64,000 nt of DNA from a virus (taxonomy: Duplodnaviria > Caudoviricetes). The notes under the pieces were generated by a model. The model saw only the letters and a list, made by a program, of their open reading frames with translations, had not been told where the DNA came from and made no database searches. The stretch covers positions 39,299 through 103,298 of IMG/VR virus record IMGVR_UViG_3300020718_000009; one strand, given 5' to 3'. A program made the translations under genes and the position numbers. Positions 13,476 through 43,205 of this stretch are shown here, piece after piece (position 1 is the stretch's first letter; each line of letters begins with the position of its first letter).

Positions 13476-15077
13476 ATGGCAATAGTGCAAATTAGTCAAA
13501 TTAGTAACCGTTTAGGGTTAAACATAGATTTGCCCCAACTAGCGGGCGGAGAATTAGGCTGGTCAACAGATACACGTCAACTTTACATTGGTAACGGCAC
13601 ACTAGAGGAAGGCGCTCCGGTTATTGGAAATACTGAAATTTTAACAGAATTTTCAGATATATTAAATTTAGCCGCAGCCTATACCTACAAAGGTACGGCC
13701 GCTGGTTACACCGTACAAACTGGTCCTACCCCTGGATCCCCAGTAGTATTAAGTTTACAATCTTGGTTGGACCAATTTGCCACGGTCAAAGATTTTGGAG
13801 CAACAGGTAATGGGTTGACTGACGATACAGCCGCCATCAACAGAGCACTTAACCAACTATATTGTCAACAATCAAACCCACAAATCCGCCGTTCATTATT
13901 TTTTCCAGCAGGGGTATATCGTATCAGTGGACCAATTAATATTCCACCTTATGCTACTTTATATGGAGAAGGTCCAGACAATTCTATTATACAAATGGTT
14001 GCCAGCGGTGGATCTGGATCGTATGTAGCACAAACAGCGGATAGCTTACAGCAAACTGGTATTAATATAGGTAACAACGGAGCTACACCTCCAACTGATA
14101 TTAATATAATTAATATGGCTTTTCAAAGTCTTGATAATAGTAAAAATATTTTCCTAGTACAGTCAGCTACCGATTGCGAATTCCACGGTGTGAGTTTTAT
14201 TGGAGCCGGCACTACAAGTACATTAACTGTGGATACTTTGGGCACTAGCGGTGTTAATTTTGGTAGTTTTGGAATTTCATTGGTCACTACTAATATTTTA
14301 TTTGATGGTTGTAGATTTGGCGGAACTGTTTACGGAATTAATACAAGCCAACAAATCAAAGGTGTGGCAGTTAATAATTCTAGTTTTAATATTTTATATC
14401 AAGGCATAGCATTGGGAACCGGATCAATCGTTAATGGCGGTCCGACTGGCACACGCATTACAAATAATGTTTTTGATAACATTTATAGTTATGGAATTAT
14501 ATTTGGTGCGATTAGTCTTAACGCAACTGGTTATAATATTTTTTATGATGTAGCAGATCACTTCCAAGGTGTTTCTAATCCAGCATTGCCAATAATTTCA
14601 TTCGGCGGAGACAACAATGCTAGTATCGGTGATATGTTCCAACGCTCAGATAGTTATGCGGTTGGTCATCCTAGAATTTATATCGGTGAAACTCTTAGTA
14701 TTGCTACAACTAACGGTAGTCAATTGCAATTAGGAACAAAAACCGTACAATCTGGATCAAGTGTTATATTACTTGACGGCGAAGCCAGCCCAACAACAGC
14801 ATTTACAGTACCTATCAATGCTACCGCCACAAGTTTTAAAATTGATTACTCAATAACACGCAGTGGCGATTTTCGAACTGGGACATTTTGGGTAGCCAGT
14901 ACCGGTGGAGAAATTTTTAATTACATGGATGATTATACTGAAAACATACCAAACGGCGGCAATAATATTACATTGAGTGCTAGTCAGTCTGGAACAAATG
15001 TGTTTATTCAATATACATCAACCCCATCTACAAGCGTAGATGCTCAAATGAGTTATTCTATTTCTTATCTTAATTAA
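13476..15077 (+). CDS. Tail/baseplate protein with Mtd-N-like start and pectate-lyase-3 beta helix
   Basis: LAGGELGWSTDTRQLYIGNG; VKDFGATGNGLTDDTAAINRAL; FFPAGVY; late box 13448-13454. Confidence 0.75.
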   Translation: MAIVQISQISNRLGLNIDLPQLAGGELGWSTDTRQLYIGNGTLEEGAPVIGNTEILTEFSDILNLAAAYTYKGTAAGYTVQTGPTPGSPVVLSLQSWLDQFATVKDFGATGNGLTDDTAAINRALNQLYCQQSNPQIRRSLFFPAGVYRISGPINIPPYATLYGEGPDNSIIQMVASGGSGSYVAQTADSLQQTGINIGNNGATPPTDINIINMAFQSLDNSKNIFLVQSATDCEFHGVSFIGAGTTSTLTVDTLGTSGVNFGSFGISLVTTNILFDGCRFGGTVYGINTSQQIKGVAVNNSSFNILYQGIALGTGSIVNGGPTGTRITNNVFDNIYSYGIIFGAISLNATGYNIFYDVADHFQGVSNPALPIISFGGDNNASIGDMFQRSDSYAVGHPRIYIGETLSIATTNGSQLQLGTKTVQSGSSVILLDGEASPTTAFTVPINATATSFKIDYSITRSGDFRTGTFWVASTGGEIFNYMDDYTENIPNGGNNITLSASQSGTNVFIQYTSTPSTSVDAQMSYSISYLN

Positions 15078-15490
15078 TGTGGCATACTGATTTTGCTGAT
15101 AGGTTAGAAGCCTGGGCAATATTACGGGAAAAGGCACAATCTTTACCTTTGGACGAGGCTCTCCAAATAATCAATGATTGGTGGTTTAATTCTCCCTGGA
15201 AATCTTATTATTTGCACTGGGATGACAAACCCACTTGGCCTGATCCCTGGCAACTTTTGAATGATAATATTTTTTGTGAACTTGCTCGCGGGCTCGGAAT
15301 CCTGTATACTATAACTTTATTGGAACATAAAGATTTGAAGTCAGCAAAGCTGGTTTTGACTGAGGACGATCGTAATTTAGTCTTAGTTAACAAAGAAAAA
15401 TATACACTTAATTGGGATCACAAAGTTATAGTAAATACTCCACTAAGCAGTAAAATTAAAAGAAGTTTTATCCACGAACAAATAAAATAG
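15077..15490 (+). CDS. Hypothetical protein (weak transglutaminase-like resemblance)
   Basis: Coupled ORF; WPDPWQLL...FCELA. Confidence 0.6.
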   Translation: MWHTDFADRLEAWAILREKAQSLPLDEALQIINDWWFNSPWKSYYLHWDDKPTWPDPWQLLNDNIFCELARGLGILYTITLLEHKDLKSAKLVLTEDDRNLVLVNKEKYTLNWDHKVIVNTPLSSKIKRSFIHEQIK

Positions 15491-15526
15491 TAGCATAAGT
15501 AGTATACACAATTAAATGAGAGTTGA

Positions 15527-17851
15527 ATGACGCAAATTACAGTTGTAAAAAGAAGCGGAGCAAAAGAACCGCTCCACATTGAAAAGTGGCAAACACAGGT
15601 AGCTAAAATTTGTCAAGGTATTGCCGATGTTAGCCAGTCAATGGTGGAAATCAAAGCACAATTACATTTTTATGATGGTATTACTACGCAAGAAATTGAC
15701 GGTATTACTTTAAGAGCTATTGTTGATCTTATTGATATAGAGTCTAATCCGGATGTAGGGCATACCAATTATCAATATGTTGCTGGAAAACAACGTCTAT
15801 CGATGTTGCGTAAAGATGTATATGGAAGTTACGAAGTACCGCACCTATATGAAATTGTAAAGAAAAATGTAGACACAGGTCTTTACACCGCAGAGCTTCT
15901 TGAGTGGTACTCAGAAGACGACTGGAACCGCATGAATGACATGCTGGATCATGATAAAGATGAAGGATATAGTTATGCCGCAATTGAACAACTTATTGAG
16001 AAATATCTCGTACGCAATCGCGCCACGAAAGAGATCTATGAGACGCCACAGATTAGATATATTATTGCGGCCGCCACTGTGTTCCATAAAGAAGAACCTA
16101 ACTCGGTCCGTATGCGTCTTATTAAAGAATATTATAACTGTGCATCCGATGGCTTGTTCACTCTTGCTACCCCTGTCCTTGCTGGGCTTGGGACTCCTAC
16201 TAAACAGTTCAGTAGTTGTGTGCTTATCCGTAGCGATGACAACCTTGATAGTATTTTCGCATCTGGAGAGATGATGGCCAAGTATGCCGCAAAACGAGCC
16301 GGTATCGGATTAGAAATTGGTCGATTGAGGCCGTTAGGAGCACCTATACGTGGCGGGGAAGTTATGCATACTGGCATGATACCTTTCCTTAAAAAATGGT
16401 TTGGTGACTTGCGTAGTTGCTCACAAGGAGGAATTAGAAATGCTTCTGCTACTGTGTTTTATCCAATTTGGCATTATCAGTTTGACGATCTTATTGTTCT
16501 CAAGAACAATCAAGGGACCGAAGAAACACGAGTTCGCTTCATGGATTACGGAGTGGTTCTATCCGCCTTCTTCTGGCGTCGCTTCAAAAACAAAGAACAA
16601 ATAACATTCTTTGATCCCAACGAAGTGCCTGATTTGTATGAAGCGTTTTATAAAAATACTGTTTTGTTTGAAGAACTATATGTTAAATACGAAAAACGTA
16701 AAGACTTACGTAAGAAGCAAATGGCCGCCGAAGATGTATTCAAAGGTGGAATACTAAAGGAGAGAACTGATACCGGCAGAATTTATCTTGTGTTCATTGA
16801 TAATGTTATGAACCAAGGTCCATTTGACCCAGCAGTTCATACCATTTATCAGTCAAACCTCTGTATGGAAATTCTTTTGCCGACTAAGAGCTTCAAACGT
16901 CTGGATGACGAAGAAGGCCGAATCAGTTTATGTACGCTCGGCTCAATGAATTGGGGTGCGTTCCGCAATCCGGAAGATATGCGTAGAGCAAGCAAACTAT
17001 TATTAAGGTCACTTAATAACATTCTTGATTATCAAGACTTCTTGAGTATTCAAAGTAAGTTAAGCAATGACGAGATTTGTCCTATTGGTATTGGTATTAC
17101 TAACTTGGCATATTGGCACGCTAAACGCGGAATGAAATACGGAACTCCAGAAGCGTTAGCTGAAGTTAAGTCTTGGATGGAGCATCAAGCGTTCTATCTC
17201 ACCGAAGCAACTGTAGAATTGGCTAAAGAGCGTGGTGCCTGCTTACATTCAGAAAAAACACGATATGGTCAAGGAATATTCCCGTGGGAATTAAGAGCCG
17301 CTGGGGTAAACGAACTTACAAACTTTGCTCCTGAATTAGACTGGGAAACCTTGCGTGAGCAAATGAAACAGTACGGCGTCCGTAATGCTACAGTAATGGC
17401 TGTAGCACCTGTAGAATCAAGTAGTGTAGTAATTAACTCAACTAACGGCATTGAAATGCCTATGAGCCTTATTACAGTTAAAGAGTCAAAAGCAGGATCG
17501 CTCATCCAAGTAGCACCGGAATACAATAAGTTAAAAGCAAAATATCAACTTATGTGGGATCAAAAAGACTGTATCGAATACCTTAAGACAGCCGCTGTTA
17601 TCGCGGCATACACCGATCAAAGCATAAGTACTAATACATTCTATTCGCCGCGACACTTTGCTGATCGTAAAGTACCATCAACACTTATTGCTAAGAATTT
17701 AATGTTAGCTCATAAGTTCGGGTTAAAATCGATATACTATAGCTTAATCGAAAAAACTGGAAGTAAAGGGCAAGATGAACCAGCTGACACAAAGTTAGAA
17801 GTAATAGACTTTGATGATGACGAAGAAGGCTGCGAAAGTTGTAAACTTTAA
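15527..17851 (+). CDS. nrdA: Ribonucleotide reductase class Ia alpha subunit
   Basis: ATP-cone VVKRSG; QFSSC; SQGGIR; SNLCME; APVESSS; C-terminal CESCKL. Confidence 0.97.
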   Translation: MTQITVVKRSGAKEPLHIEKWQTQVAKICQGIADVSQSMVEIKAQLHFYDGITTQEIDGITLRAIVDLIDIESNPDVGHTNYQYVAGKQRLSMLRKDVYGSYEVPHLYEIVKKNVDTGLYTAELLEWYSEDDWNRMNDMLDHDKDEGYSYAAIEQLIEKYLVRNRATKEIYETPQIRYIIAAATVFHKEEPNSVRMRLIKEYYNCASDGLFTLATPVLAGLGTPTKQFSSCVLIRSDDNLDSIFASGEMMAKYAAKRAGIGLEIGRLRPLGAPIRGGEVMHTGMIPFLKKWFGDLRSCSQGGIRNASATVFYPIWHYQFDDLIVLKNNQGTEETRVRFMDYGVVLSAFFWRRFKNKEQITFFDPNEVPDLYEAFYKNTVLFEELYVKYEKRKDLRKKQMAAEDVFKGGILKERTDTGRIYLVFIDNVMNQGPFDPAVHTIYQSNLCMEILLPTKSFKRLDDEEGRISLCTLGSMNWGAFRNPEDMRRASKLLLRSLNNILDYQDFLSIQSKLSNDEICPIGIGITNLAYWHAKRGMKYGTPEALAEVKSWMEHQAFYLTEATVELAKERGACLHSEKTRYGQGIFPWELRAAGVNELTNFAPELDWETLREQMKQYGVRNATVMAVAPVESSSVVINSTNGIEMPMSLITVKESKAGSLIQVAPEYNKLKAKYQLMWDQKDCIEYLKTAAVIAAYTDQSISTNTFYSPRHFADRKVPSTLIAKNLMLAHKFGLKSIYYSLIEKTGSKGQDEPADTKLEVIDFDDDEEGCESCKL

Positions 17852-17872
17852 GAAAGTATGTTACAATAGAGT

Positions 17873-18568
17873 ATGGATTATCAACAGATTTACAATAACT
17901 TAATAGATCGTGCTACACGCAGGGTTAGTGAAGGCTATGTTGAAAAACATCACATAGTTCCTCGCTGTCTTGGCGGAACTGACGCTAAAGAAAACATTGT
18001 AAATCTTTATCCTGAAGAACATTACCTTGCTCACTTGCTGTTATGTAAAATAAACAAAGGTAACTCAAAATTATTGTATGCCGCAATGAATATGACTTCG
18101 GGATCTATGATTAATAACGGCAAGCGAAATAATAAAGCATACGGCTGGCTTCGTAGACAATACGCAGAATCTATGTCAGGAGATAACAATCCTAACAGAC
18201 GCACCCCCGAAATACAAAAGAAAGCTGCACTAAAACGAGTAGGACAAAAACGCACGGAAGAAACTAAAGCAAGAATGTCAGCGGCACAAAAAGGTAGAAG
18301 TGTTAGCGAAGAGACAAAACAAAAAATGTCTATATCAGCAAAGAATAAACCTCCCGTTAGTAAAGAGACTCGAGAAAAACTGTCAGCAAAATCTAAAGGG
18401 CGTGTTGGTCCGTGGGCTGGTAAGAAACAGCCAGCTGATGTTGTTGCTAAACGAGCCGATTCTAACCGCGGTAGAAAAGATAGCGACGAAGTTCGATTAA
18501 AAAAATCCGCCGCGGCAAAAATGAGAGAATCCATTAAAAGACAACAGAGAGAATTACTCGAGTCATAG
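17873..18568 (+). CDS. HNH homing endonuclease with NUMOD3 repeats
   Basis: EKHHIVPRCLGG...NIVNLYPEEHYLAHLLL; SEETK.KMS repeats. Confidence 0.88.
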   Translation: MDYQQIYNNLIDRATRRVSEGYVEKHHIVPRCLGGTDAKENIVNLYPEEHYLAHLLLCKINKGNSKLLYAAMNMTSGSMINNGKRNNKAYGWLRRQYAESMSGDNNPNRRTPEIQKKAALKRVGQKRTEETKARMSAAQKGRSVSEETKQKMSISAKNKPPVSKETREKLSAKSKGRVGPWAGKKQPADVVAKRADSNRGRKDSDEVRLKKSAAAKMRESIKRQQRELLES

Positions 18569-18674
18569 ATGGGCAACAGACGGTGTTAAGAATGTTAAAC
18601 TTAATGCTGAAGATTTAGATAAGTTCTTGAAAGAGAACAGAACATACAAACAAGGAAGAACAATATAAAGGAAA

Positions 18675-19901
18675 ATGATGAAGAAGCGTAATTACACAAA
18701 GGAAGATGTAACAAAGTTACAAGGTAGTCTAAAAATTGAATACACATTGGCTCGTCGTGGGGCAACCAAACTCCGCGAATTATTGGCAACAGAACCATTT
18801 GTGCCTACCTTAGGCGCATACAATGGACAGCAAGCGGTACAACACGCTAAAGCAGGATTAAAAGCAATTTACTTGTCAGGTTGGCAAGTAGCGGCAGCTG
18901 CGAACGTATCGGGTCGTGTTTACCCTGACCAATCATTGTATCCAGTAAACTCAGTGCCAGAAGTTGTTCGAGCAATTAACAACGCACTTCGTCGTGCTGA
19001 TCAAATTCAAACACTAGAAAGAACCAGTGACGATGAACCACAGATGGATTACTACTTGCCAATTATCGCTGATTGTGAAGCAGGCTTTGGCGGTGCTCTC
19101 AACGCCTACGAATTAACATTGAGTTGTATTGAGGCCGGTGCGGCTGCTGTTCACTTTGAAGATCAACTGAGCTCGGAAAAGAAGTGTGGACACCTGGGTG
19201 GCAAGGTACTGATTCCAATCCGGCAAGCCATTCGCAACCTAAATGCCGCTCGTCTTGCTGCGGATGTAGCAGAAGTAGATACAGTTATTCTCGCTCGTAC
19301 AGATGCAGAGAGTGGAACACTTATTACTACAGATATAGATCCTTTGGATCAACCATTTATTGATTATTCCAAGGAACGTACACCCGAAGGTTTTTATCAC
19401 TTTAAAAATGGATTAGGTGCGTGCATTGCTCGTGGCCTTGCTTATGCCGAGTACGCAGACTTACTATGGTTTGAAACATCAACTCCGGATCTGGCACAGG
19501 CACAGGCATTTGCTGATGCTATTCACGAAAAGTTTCCTGATCAACAGTTAGCATACAACTGCTCACCCAGCTTTAACTGGCGCAAGTATTTGACAGAAGA
19601 ACAATGTGAAAGTTTCCAATCAGAGATTGGTAAAATGGGTTACAAATATCAATTCATCACCCTTGCTGGTTTCCATTGCAACAACCTTGCTACGTTTGAA
19701 ATGGCCGAAGCATATCAGAAAACAGGCATGCGTGGTTATTCAGATATGCAACAGCGTGAGTTCGCCGCACAAGAGCGTGGCTTTACTACAGTTAAACATC
19801 AGCGTGAAGCAGGTGTTCCATACTTTGATGCTATTGCTACAGCAGTTGGCGCCACAAGCACCACGGCCTTAGAACACTCAACAGAAGCGGACCAGTTCTA
19901 A
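18675..19901 (+). CDS. aceA: Isocitrate lyase
   Basis: [22 protein letters not shown], catalytic [29 protein letters not shown]-terminal HSTEADQF. Confidence 0.97.
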
Positions 19902-21001
19902 TGGGTCAAGCACAATACAATCTTAATACTAAGACTGACTACTTACATCGCAAGATGTTCTTAGATCCAGCGGGCCCAGTTACTATTCAACGTTTCGAAG
20001 AAGTTAAGTATAACAAACTCACAAAGTTTGAACAAGAAGCTCGTGGATTCTTTTGGGTGCCAGAAGAAATCTCTCTTACTAAAGATGCTAACGATTTTAA
20101 AGAAGCGTCAGATACAGTTCGTCATATCTTTACTAGTAACCTGCTTAGACAAACAGCATTAGACAGTATCCAAGGCCGTGGCCCAAGTCAAATTTTTACT
20201 CCAGTATGTTCTATTCCTGAACTAGAAGCATTAATGTATGCTTGGACTTTCTTTGAAACAAATATTCACAGTCGTAGTTACAGTCATATCATTCGTAATA
20301 TCTATAATGTACCTAAAGATATTTTTAACACTATTCACGACACACAACAAATTATTGACATGGCAAGTAGCATTGGCCTTTACTATGACAAACTACATAT
20401 GATTAATTGTCGTAAAGAGTTGTTGGAAAAGTTTGACGAACAATTACACATCAATGCTATCTGGTTGGCACTCAACGCAAGTTACGGACTAGAAGCATTT
20501 CGCTTTATGGTATCGTTTGCCACAAGTTTAGCCATGGTAGAGAATCGTATCTTTATTGGCAACGGTAATATTATTAGTCTGATCCTTCAAGATGAAATCC
20601 TACACAAGGATTGGACCGCTTGGTTAATCAATCAAGTGGTCAAAGAAGATCCACGCTTTGCTCGCGCCAAGATAGAATGTGAAGCGGAAGTCTATCAAAT
20701 GTATTTAGATGTCATACGCGAAGAAAAACAATGGGCTGATTATTTGTTTAATCGAGGACCGGTTATCGGTCTAAACGCAAACATTCTTAAAGAGTTTGTT
20801 GACTACACAGCCGCCGGTGCATTAAAAGAGATTGGTATTAAATATCAAACTCCGGCGCCAAAAACAACACCCATTCCTTGGTTTAACAAACATGTGAATG
20901 TTAGTAATAAACAGACGGCACTACAAGAATCGGAATCAACAAACTATGTCATCGGAGTAATGGGCGACACCTTAGACTACGATGCATTACCGAACTTATA
21001 A
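19901..21001 (+). CDS. nrdB: Ribonucleotide reductase class Ia beta subunit
   Basis: FFWVPEEI, QTALDSIQGR, ETNIHSRSY, LEAFRFMVSFA and DEILH. Confidence 0.96.
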   Translation: MGQAQYNLNTKTDYLHRKMFLDPAGPVTIQRFEEVKYNKLTKFEQEARGFFWVPEEISLTKDANDFKEASDTVRHIFTSNLLRQTALDSIQGRGPSQIFTPVCSIPELEALMYAWTFFETNIHSRSYSHIIRNIYNVPKDIFNTIHDTQQIIDMASSIGLYYDKLHMINCRKELLEKFDEQLHINAIWLALNASYGLEAFRFMVSFATSLAMVENRIFIGNGNIISLILQDEILHKDWTAWLINQVVKEDPRFARAKIECEAEVYQMYLDVIREEKQWADYLFNRGPVIGLNANILKEFVDYTAAGALKEIGIKYQTPAPKTTPIPWFNKHVNVSNKQTALQESESTNYVIGVMGDTLDYDALPNL

Positions 21002-21020
21002 TAATAAGGAGAATAATAAT

Positions 21021-21245
21021 ATGAAAGCAATAGTATGGTCAAAAAACTCGTGTACTTTTTGTTTACAAGCAAAAAGTCTATTATCGGCTAAAGGTATTGA
21101 ATTTGAAGAACGTAACATACAAAAAGATTGGACTCGAGAACAGTTATTGGAAGCAATACCTACTGCAAAAACTTTACCCCAGATCTTCTTAGACGATAAC
21201 TATATTGGCGGGTTTACAGAACTTCGCAAACATTTTCAAGGATAA
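21021..21245 (+). CDS. Glutaredoxin
   Basis: CTFC active site, TLPQIF and IGGF; AGGAG RBS. Confidence 0.92.
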   Translation: MKAIVWSKNSCTFCLQAKSLLSAKGIEFEERNIQKDWTREQLLEAIPTAKTLPQIFLDDNYIGGFTELRKHFQG

Positions 21246-21246
21246 T

Positions 21247-21549
21247 ATGAAACTAGAAACAGGTAAAGTATATACATTAAAACTACACAACGCCGATGAA
21301 GTTGTTGCCAAAATTATTGAAGATAACGAGGATAATATTGTAGTTACACAACCATTATCAGCGGTCCCTACTGAAAAAGGTGTACAGTTAATTTTTACAG
21401 TATTTACAGCAGACCCCAAGGAAAACATCACTATAAATAAGTCAGCAATCACAATGATTTGTAGTACTGCTGAACAAGTTAGTGATCATTACTTAGAAGC
21501 AACTACAGGAATTAAGGCAATTAGAAATAATAAAATATTAATGGGGTAG
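21247..21549 (+). CDS. Hypothetical protein (Sm-like fold possible)
   Basis: TLKLHNADEVVAKI pattern; in operon. Confidence 0.6.
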   Translation: MKLETGKVYTLKLHNADEVVAKIIEDNEDNIVVTQPLSAVPTEKGVQLIFTVFTADPKENITINKSAITMICSTAEQVSDHYLEATTGIKAIRNNKILMG

Positions 21550-21550
21550 T

Positions 21551-21823
21551 ATGGGAAGACAAATAGTCAGAGTTGGAGATGTAAATAGTGCCGGCGGAGC
21601 AGTAATATCTGGAACACAAACAGTTACCATGAATGGTCTAGCCATAGCACTCGACGGTTCTCCAGTTACTTGTCATACTCCTAACAAAGGAGAGCATGTT
21701 CATGCTCATTGTGTGGCCTCTGAATACAGTATTAAAATTGAAGGCAAAAGAGTAATTTATGTCGGAGATGTTGACAGCTGCGGACACGTTCGCATTCAAG
21801 GAAGTCCAACCATAGGTTCTTAA
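21551..21823 (+). CDS. PAAR-like baseplate spike tip protein
   Basis: RVGD...GG.V..G..TV.MNG; YVGDVDSCGH. Confidence 0.8.
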   Translation: MGRQIVRVGDVNSAGGAVISGTQTVTMNGLAIALDGSPVTCHTPNKGEHVHAHCVASEYSIKIEGKRVIYVGDVDSCGHVRIQGSPTIGS

Positions 21824-21824
21824 A

Positions 21825-22301
21825 ATGGCAAGTACACCAAGTTTATATACCCCCTTACAAATTAATGTTGTTTCCAGTTTATTGCAAAATCAAGGATTAG
21901 CAGCAAATTCTGTTTTTACGGCTGCGGTTAATTCATACACTTCATCCTTAATTGCTCCACTTATACAAACTGTAGCTATAGTTGGTTCTGGTGGATCAGT
22001 TCAAGCAGGATCTCCTCCCGGAGCATCGCCAGCAATAATGACGCCTGAAATTGCGAGCCAGCTATTGACATTGGGTGCTACCACTTGTCCAGCATTAGGC
22101 GATAGTATCCCCGCCGCCAATGCCGCCAGTTGGCCATCTGAATTAATGTCTACTTTGATTGGCACTACTGCTAATTCATACATAGGTAACGGGGATTTAA
22201 GTAAATTTTGTCAGGCAGTGTCGTCAGCACAAGCCTATGCCAGCATAACAAATCAAACTATTAATACCGCTCTTAATAGTCAAACATATTTAGGACAATA
22301 A
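21825..22301 (+). CDS. Virion (tail/baseplate) protein
   Basis: Ser/Ala/Thr-rich; CPALGDSIP; follows PAAR gene. Confidence 0.55.
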   Translation: MASTPSLYTPLQINVVSSLLQNQGLAANSVFTAAVNSYTSSLIAPLIQTVAIVGSGGSVQAGSPPGASPAIMTPEIASQLLTLGATTCPALGDSIPAANAASWPSELMSTLIGTTANSYIGNGDLSKFCQAVSSAQAYASITNQTINTALNSQTYLGQ

Positions 22302-42500: not shown

Positions 42501-43205
42501 ATGATTACAATAATAGCAACCTTGGTAATGGTTCAAATTACCATAGCATGTGTCACTGTTTATTTACACCGCGGTCAAGCTCACAAAGGATTGACATTTA
42601 ATCCAGTATTAGAGCATTTTATGAGATTCCAGTTATGGTTGACCACCGGTATGGTTACTAAGCAATGGGTCGCTATACATCGCAAACATCATAGATTTGA
42701 TGACGCCGAAGGAGACCCACATAGTCCACATGTTTTTGGAATATGGACGGTATTCTTCAAAGGCGCGCTACTTTATACTAAAGCTGCCAAAGATAAGCAA
42801 ATGATTCAACAATATGGGGTAGGAACACCTGATGATTGGATTGAACATAATTTGTATACCAAGTACAATTTCCTAGGTATATTTCTTATGTTAATACTAG
42901 ACCTTTATCTTTTCCAGCTATGGGGTTTTATAGTTTGGGGAATACAGATGATTTGGATTCCTTTATGGGCCGCGGGAGTTGTAAATGGATTTGGACATTG
43001 GTGGGGATATCGTAATAAAGACACCCAGGACTTTAGTCGTAATTTAACTCCTTGGGCTGTATGGATCGGCGGCGAAGAATTGCACAATAATCATCACGCA
43101 GAACCAGGCAATCCTAAATTAAGTCGAAAGTCATTTGAATTTGATATTGGCTGGTTATATATCAAAGTGCTCGAAAAACTACGTCTGGTAACTCTCCGCA
43201 ATTAA
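42501..43205 (+). CDS. Acyl-CoA/fatty-acid delta-9-type desaturase (DesA-like)
   Basis: His boxes HRGQAH, HRKHH and HNNHH; DPHSP; EFDIGW. Confidence 0.92.
   Translation: MITIIATLVMVQITIACVTVYLHRGQAHKGLTFNPVLEHFMRFQLWLTTGMVTKQWVAIHRKHHRFDDAEGDPHSPHVFGIWTVFFKGALLYTKAAKDKQMIQQYGVGTPDDWIEHNLYTKYNFLGIFLMLILDLYLFQLWGFIVWGIQMIWIPLWAAGVVNGFGHWWGYRNKDTQDFSRNLTPWAVWIGGEELHNNHHAEPGNPKLSRKSFEFDIGWLYIKVLEKLRLVTLRN

Follow-up and report, generated by a model that had tools for sequence, protein, structure and literature searches.

An isocitrate lyase of a virus-only lineage in the variable nrdA-nrdB interval of a phage genome

We analysed a 64,000-nucleotide stretch of viral DNA (Duplodnaviria; Caudoviricetes), hereafter the window, which forms the last 64 kb of the 103,298-base IMG/VR contig IMGVR_UViG_3300020718_000009 (positions 39,299 to 103,298) and in which a gene for isocitrate lyase (ICL, AceA) lies between nrdA and nrdB, the genes for the two subunits of a class Ia ribonucleotide reductase. 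Isocitrate lyase (EC 4.1.3.1) converts isocitrate to succinate and glyoxylate and opens the glyoxylate shunt, which lets acetyl-CoA feed C4 and gluconeogenic precursors. Taken as a whole, the account that we consider probable is that positions 18675-19901 encode a catalytically competent ICL of an N-terminally shortened, virus-only lineage circulating among T4-like aquatic phages; that a freshwater jumbo phage of about 350 kb would carry this gene in a fast-turning slot, as we call the nrdA-nrdB interval; that the enzyme would most likely be made during the replication and nucleotide-synthesis phase, its glyoxylate being left to the host; and that the HNH endonuclease gene beside it would be an independent element through whose co-conversion ICL may have entered genomes and passed from one to another.

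An intact enzyme of viral descent

The predicted protein scores 656 bits on the NCBIfam equivalog NF011645, against a cut-off of 562, and 348.6 bits on the Pfam ICL family (PF00463), against a cut-off of 26; its residues 5-408 align with residues 24-423 of the solved ICL 7CMX (E 2.9e-158), the solved bacterial ICLs ranging to 1.8e-141. The catalytic loop KKCGH, which the first-pass annotation of the window had reported as complete, occupies residues 169-173 with its active-site cysteine and aligns with the loops of 7CMX and 6LRP, and the metal- and substrate-binding motifs, among them SGWQ, DxEAGFGG, FEDQ and the arginine of a longer motif, are found at residues 68, 133, 161, 207, 295 and 329, with TLAGFH and the full motif opening with Dx also present. 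Across 79 viral and 80 cellular ICL sequences KKCGH is invariant, as are the other motifs save for variable positions within three of them (residue 134 in DxEAGFGG, and single substitutions in TLAGFH and in one further motif). Among close viral orthologues the pairwise ratio of nonsynonymous to synonymous divergence (dN/dS) is 0.04-0.08, which denotes strong purifying selection. On its equivalog score, motifs and dN/dS the enzyme is judged intact, in agreement with the earlier annotation, and we predict that it is catalytically competent.

The viral open reading frames (ORFs), at 402-413 residues, lack the short-form architecture of about 425-435 residues including an N-terminal segment: ahead of the conserved R-x-Y they have 3-7 residues, where cellular ICLs mostly have 20-30. 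Nothing is missing from the barrel or the C-terminal region, and by alignment the viral shortening is an architectural variant that leaves the catalytic core in place. Because the ICLs of relatives begin MKKRNY, the true start of the window gene is probably the second ATG, at 18678; AAGGA is found just upstream of it.

Phylogenetic analysis against cellular ICLs, which had been proposed as a check, placed the gene firmly among viruses. In a tree of 124 sequences (48 viral ICLs and the 76 nearest cellular ones) a single clade with support 99 holds 46 of the 48 viral sequences, including those of the window and of the Kyanoviridae phage C48C1, and excludes all 76 cellular sequences. Two traits are fixed in this clade, namely the loss of about 20 N-terminal residues and an arginine at residue 34, where 96% of cellular ICLs have tryptophan. 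The ICLs of L046 and L051 (L numbers are our handles for the contigs compared), which IMG/VR classes as viral, group with cellular sequences, and these two are probably host-derived or misclassified contigs. When 185,579 prokaryote species were scanned, each represented by one genome, the best cellular ICL was 65% identical to that of the window, the best matches being Alphaproteobacteria, and bacterial ICLs matched it at 58-65% identity by tblastn. When 5.8 billion database proteins were searched, the closest 120 were all 89-100% identical and lie on metagenomic contigs of at most 370 kb; one of them is GenBank CAB4129343.1, the 'AceA' of an uncultured Caudovirales phage. A megablast search of the locus against GenBank phages gave no match.

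The genome around the gene is that of a phage. The window encodes a primase, a DnaB-type helicase, a PD-(D/E)XK nuclease, a tail-fibre-like protein, a DNA ligase and a head maturation protease, and the locus is a module for replication and nucleotide synthesis in a genuine phage; ICL has viral genes on both sides (reductase genes, primase, helicase, ligase and head protease), the setting expected of an auxiliary metabolic gene, on a contig syntenic with a 99%-complete phage genome. CheckV puts the contig at about 29% complete, implying a genome of about 350 kb. One could still envision an assembly chimera, host contamination or a decaying, functionless passenger, and the GC content of ICL (0.45) does exceed that of its flanks (0.37-0.40). 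Seven independent viral contigs, drawn from different samples, nevertheless have the same gene order, cellular ICLs reach 65% identity at most, viral genes stand on either side, and the ORF is intact with its motifs kept and a dN/dS of about 0.05. The synteny and selection data effectively refute all three versions of this explanation, including the chimerism with host DNA that the first-pass annotation had named as fatal to its claim.

More distant viral ICLs have as neighbours T4 gp15, the gp45 clamp, alternative oxidase, ThyX, 2-oxoglutarate oxygenases and a nucleotidase-like protein, a setting typical of the metabolic-gene islands that T4-like phages carry. In the lineages of L012, L018, L019 and L022, ICL is divergent from a nucleotidase-like gene (phrog_420) and is followed by a fatty-acid-desaturase-like gene; a conserved, T4-late-promoter-like CATAAATACT motif lies together with AAGGAG 20-45 nt upstream of the ICL start, and from its sequence ICL seems to have its own promoter in phages of this type. 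The window itself has a desaturase-like gene at 42501-43202, 62% identical to the companion of ICL in L012, L018 and L019-L029; the two genes travel together in other lineages and are 23 kb apart in the window phage.

A slot of changing cargo within the reductase operon

The order nrdA, HNH, aceA, nrdB, grx, as first annotated, was borne out by the ORFs and by profile searches of Pfam, NCBIfam and PHROG (Table 1); the glutaredoxin encoded by grx is likely the electron donor of the reductase. At the junction of ICL and nrdB, which reads ...cagttcTAATGggtcaa, the TAA stop (19899-19901) shares one base with the ATG (19901-19903), so the TAATG overlap previously noted is present, and the nrdB start is preceded by no more than a weak purine-rich stretch (GAAGCGGA). 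An overlapping stop and start on one strand, with no terminator-like site in the gap, is the configuration expected of a translationally coupled pair. The terminator scan found no such site in either intergenic gap of the same-strand run from nrdA to grx, its + strand matches falling only inside the HNH and nrdB ORFs, and because the genes form an uninterrupted run of this kind, ICL is likely to be co-expressed with the ribonucleotide reductase. A search of Rfam over 15000-22000 found no riboswitch and no other RNA family.

Table 1. Genes and sites of the window locus, followed by genes of related loci (positions refer to the window unless a contig handle is given)
Feature	Position	Strand	Evidence or context
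nrdA, class Ia ribonucleotide reductase large subunit, 774 aa, ATP-cone and barrel	15527-17851	+	Pfam PF02867 6e-107, PF00317, PF03477; NCBIfam NF006578 811.8 bits
Sigma-70-like promoter match, TTGTAA-17-TACAAT with upstream TG, ending 5 nt before the HNH start codon	17839-17867	+	consensus scan; weak
Free-standing HNH/NUMOD3 homing endonuclease, 231 aa, apparently 3'-truncated	17873-18568	+	phrog_655 2.3e-53; NUMOD3 1.7e-10
47-codon open tail, +1 frame relative to the HNH ORF, ...HRWATDGVKNVKLNAEDLDKFLKENRTYKQGRTI*	18525-18668	+	three-frame translation
Isocitrate lyase (ICL), 408 aa	18675-19901	+	Pfam ICL 7e-104; NCBIfam NF011645 656 bits
TAATG, one-base overlap of ICL stop and nrdB start	19899-19903	+	sequence
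nrdB, class Ia ribonucleotide reductase small subunit, 366 aa	19901-21001	+	Pfam PF00268 7e-40; NCBIfam NF006576 291 bits
Glutaredoxin (grx), 87 aa	20982-21245	+	Pfam PF00462 2.6e-13
Class II aldolase copies	L006:8374-9045; L015:7212-7874; L017:7212-7877; L018:7420-8118; L022:7212-7865
IscS cysteine desulfurase, 421 aa	L185:9279-10544		slot cargo; 737 bits, above cut-off
AGXT/PhnW-like class V aminotransferase	L224:9337-10476		slot cargo
Unannotated 313-aa protein	L199:9316-10257		slot cargo
YHYH-domain protein	L004:2167-3417; L006:7289-8374		slot cargo

What occupies the slot varies widely. A survey anchored on NrdA yielded 80 relatives at 83-92% identity. In 78 of them the locus includes both nrd genes, and of these 78 slots 31 are empty, 32 are filled by a class II aldolase, 10 by other cargo, 2 by an HNH gene alone, 1 by a YHYH protein and 2 by ICL. 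The other cargo includes an IscS cysteine desulfurase and an AGXT/PhnW-like aminotransferase. A 421-residue class V aminotransferase in the slot of one relative was considered as a glyoxylate aminotransferase and rejected; it is the IscS desulfurase of Table 1. On the NrdA tree the ICL-positive loci fall at three separate places amid ICL-less relatives, and ICL is missing altogether from a relative (262 kb, 75% complete) whose slot is empty. The slot is thus an insertion hot spot with fast turnover and not evidence of a functional partnership with the reductase. A repeat search returned short repeats at chance level only and no cassette boundaries, and the flanks of ICL have no sequence in common between synteny types beyond the ORF itself.

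The position of ICL is also variable from the side of the gene. The order nrdA-[insert]-ICL-[insert]-nrdB-grx, which we call slot-type, is found in the window and six other contigs and the order nrdA-nrdB-ICL-grx in seven; in two further lineages ICL is divergent from a nucleotidase-like gene, and most viral ICLs are located away from the nrd genes altogether.

The first-pass annotation had inferred that the phage co-expresses carbon rerouting with the synthesis of deoxynucleoside triphosphates (dNTPs), an unusual placement for a metabolic gene. In its stronger form this would make the placement adaptive, ICL being kept joined to nrdB for co-production so that carbon rerouting is tied to dNTP synthesis. 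In keeping with such a tie, ICL abuts nrdB at 0 or -1 nt in both orders (ICL-nrdB in the window, L010 and L013, with the same TAATG in the latter two; nrdB-ICL in L005, L007, L008, L014 and L017), and in other lineages it adjoins the nucleotidase-like gene or ThyX. However, the slots of the 76 other close relatives do without it, being for the most part empty or held by aldolase; most viral ICLs lie elsewhere; and the 3' end of ICL is joined just as tightly to whatever follows, be it the aldolase, an 84-residue ORF (orf84) or grx. Overlaps of -1 or -4 occur at 22 of the 110 same-strand junctions of the contig (about 20%), so that TAATG-type overlap is the default gene packing in this genome and nothing special to ICL and nrdB. 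Because slot contents vary and overlaps are common, position does not prove a link between carbon and dNTP metabolism, and we regard adaptive placement as unlikely. Of the original proposal, likely co-expression stands and a designed functional link is not supported. These observations correct the inference, tempting though it is, that a place in the operon demonstrates a link to DNA-precursor synthesis. They cast the reductase operon as a landing pad for metabolic genes (ICL, class II aldolase, IscS, aminotransferase) and homing endonucleases, which suggests a route of gene spread.

Separate history of the gene and the role of the endonuclease

Comparison with the 99%-complete relative of 343,632 bases (G001 record, L165-L182), whose synteny type differs from that of the window, sets ICL apart from the genomes that carry it. 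The median identity of 68 syntenic orthologues is 57%, and ICL stands at the top with 93%, against 46% for NrdA and 39% for NrdB. Its synonymous sites are unsaturated (proportion of synonymous differences, pS, 0.59; synonymous divergence, dS, 1.16), whereas the other compared genes have a dS of at least 2.2 or are saturated (pS 0.71-0.94). The two genomes are 7 points apart in GC content (37.9% in the window phage, 45.2% in the relative), and the GC content at third codon positions (GC3) of the other compared genes is about 0.2-0.3 in the former and 0.4-0.55 in the latter, a gap of roughly 0.2, whereas that of ICL is 0.34 in both. Against close relatives the dS of ICL is again lower than that of its flanks, except for nrdA in the comparison of the window with L010. 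In that comparison (nrdA 15527-17851 with L010:2791-5115; nrdB 19901-21001 with L010:7230-8330) dS is 0.76 for nrdA, 1.13 for ICL and 3.8 for nrdB. The locus is a mosaic, and these values suggest recombination breakpoints inside the operon. The tree of ICL DNA is star-like. Together these contrasts are suggestive, not proof, of a spread of ICL among these phages more recent than the divergence of their genomes.

A candidate vehicle lies next to the gene. Phage ribonucleotide reductase genes are habitual targets of homing elements (PMC2790892, PMC3045599, PMC2988022), and MobE of T4, the HNH endonuclease of the nrd region, nicks the nrdB of a rival phage and co-converts neighbouring DNA up to about 2 kb (PMC2790892). 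The window HNH ORF has the features of a MobE-like gene: it is free-standing, covers positions 27-202 of the 343 of profile phrog_655, carries an HH...N...H motif in residues 26-53 and combines a nuclease domain with a DNA-binding repeat. Over its N-terminal 110 residues it is 51% identical to the HNH protein at the same position in L013. The 47-codon tail in the +1 frame runs up to the ICL ribosome-binding site, with A-runs just upstream, at about 18498-18520; a Pfam search of the tail gave no match. The tail is possibly the frameshifted C-terminal part of the endonuclease; a decaying endonuclease, a sequencing slip or programmed frameshifting could each account for it.

In six of the seven slot-type ICL contigs (four of five independent lineages) the ICL start lies directly against an HNH gene or what is left of the 3' end of one; among ICL-less relatives, two of 76 have such a gene. 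The gene itself is present in the window, L013, L188 and L215, with remnants in L006, L009, L010 and L011, and neither L004 nor most of the 78 relatives have it, a presence/absence polymorphism. One could envision from this that the two genes form a mobile pair, the endonuclease cutting empty slots and repair copying both, in trans-homing of the MobE kind. The association just described, the scatter of ICL-positive loci on the NrdA tree, the low dS of ICL relative to most flanking genes and the reach of MobE-mediated conversion (PMC2790892) are all as such a pair would have it. Yet each element is found without the other (the endonuclease in L188 and L215, ICL in L004 and all other synteny types); the window HNH and the L013 type are alike over the N-terminal 110 residues only; the 3' end of the window gene looks frameshifted; and the association could stem from a single nrdA-HNH-ICL-nrdB ancestor followed by decay of the endonuclease. 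We consider a true mobile pair possible but doubtful. Our comparison points instead to the endonuclease as an independent selfish element that has no part in the metabolic function and on which ICL may plausibly have hitchhiked. Co-mobilisation as first suggested therefore survives as a comparative association, not as an obligate unit.

The likeness to T4 is that in both phages a free-standing HNH-family gene lies between the reductase genes. The differences are that the neighbour mobilised by mobE is a defunct intron and here would be a 1.2-kb metabolic gene; that mobE is promoterless, whereas the window HNH gene has a promoter-like site of its own, albeit a weak one; and that the C-terminus of the window protein looks frameshifted.

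The fate of glyoxylate and known isocitrate lyases

The absence of malate synthase from the window, noted in the first-pass annotation, extends further: malate synthase (PF01274) was not found in the whole 103,298-base contig, nor in five ICL-bearing viral records, including ones that are 99% (343,632 bases), 91% and 89% complete. The arrangement of an aceBA shunt operon, with malate synthase encoded alongside ICL, is thus lacking, and a class V (AGXT-type) aminotransferase was likewise not found in the ICL-bearing genomes. Because the phage encodes neither enzyme, use of glyoxylate would fall to the host. Host malate synthase could complete a carbon-sparing bypass to C4 acids and aspartate; alternatively, glyoxylate could be transaminated to glycine; and either route would feed nucleotide synthesis.

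A different solution is hinted at by a class II aldolase family protein of about 220 residues, encoded directly after ICL, often across a TAATG overlap, in four contexts (L006; L014-L017; L018; L022-L028). If the two enzymes formed a two-step route, glyoxylate would be consumed, for example by aldol addition to dihydroxyacetone phosphate (DHAP), in place of malate synthase, and the window phage would have lost the aldolase or have it elsewhere. The recurrent gene order and the use of the same nrd slot by both genes speak for such a route, as do the conserved metal ligands of the aldolase (E94, H117, H119 and H189) and its AlphaFold model (predicted local distance difference test, pLDDT, 90.8), which resembles DHAP-type class II aldolases in general, matching DrdA 6BTG, FucA, RhaD and AraD. 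Those fold matches are generic, however, and the NCBIfam scores are far below every cut-off, so that the substrate is not inferable; the aldolase stands alone in the slot of 32 of the 78 relatives (e.g. L196, L201 and L208); and it is absent from both the 103-kb contig of the window and the 99%-complete ICL-bearing relative, because of which a joint pathway is optional at best. We find this replacement of malate synthase improbable. Still more speculative, and in our judgement a long shot, is the broader idea that ICL and a divergent zinc-type class II aldolase make up a virus-specific module that uses or disposes of glyoxylate without malate synthase (e.g. by DHAP condensation), the module or its halves being shuttled between giant phages by homing endonucleases that target the reductase genes. 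The recurring pair is nonetheless a lead on glyoxylate use in phages that lack malate synthase.

We thus return to the account given at the outset, in which a competent viral ICL occupies a cargo slot and the host deals with glyoxylate, and several points weigh against it. The contig is only about 29% of the genome, and malate synthase or the aldolase could lie in the remainder; the 99%-complete relative without either is of the other synteny type. For neither synteny type did an approximately unbiased (AU) test reject vertical inheritance of ICL (p 0.21 and 0.27), and because it rejects nothing, the case for horizontal spread rests on the contrasts in synonymous sites and GC3, for which unusual codon constraint could also be responsible. 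The terminator scan was at chance level, as was the promoter scan, whose consensus matches were as many in the region as in shuffled sequence. The activity and expression of ICL are predictions from sequence, and the fate of glyoxylate is a guess; a tRNA search intended for host inference found none.

Compared with the bacterial short-form AceA/ICL1 enzymes (7CMX, 6LRP, 1F61 and 1F8I of M. tuberculosis, 1IGW of E. coli), the phage protein is identical in KKCGH, in the Mg-binding acidic residues and in the substrate-binding motifs; it differs in lacking some 20 N-terminal residues, in the change of tryptophan to arginine at residue 34, in having no aceB or aceK partner and in sitting in a phage nrd operon. 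Phage ICL as a kind is already known, and the present gene is a further well-documented case. aceA has been found in Pacific Ocean viromes (PMC4053976), and an aceBA operon in a complete 179-kb marine viral genome (PMC5332604), which differs in that malate synthase stands beside ICL there and is missing from the contig of this phage. According to a recent preprint, ICL occurs in 98 huge phages, only 22 of which have malate synthase, none of those 22 being freshwater (bioRxiv 10.1101/2025.02.27.640493); the freshwater huge phages described there resemble ours in carrying ICL without malate synthase. Within the accessible text of these three sources (bioRxiv 10.1101/2025.02.27.640493, PMC4053976, PMC5332604) the nrdA-nrdB slot, the association with a homing endonuclease, the shortened virus-only clade and the ICL-aldolase pair are not described. 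What is new here is an ICL that is the most conserved of 68 proteins common to two diverged giant phages, with unsaturated synonymous sites and a GC3 that follows neither genome, together with an HNH gene or remnant that abuts ICL in nearly all slot-type contigs and an ICL-then-class II aldolase pair that recurs across separate genomic contexts.

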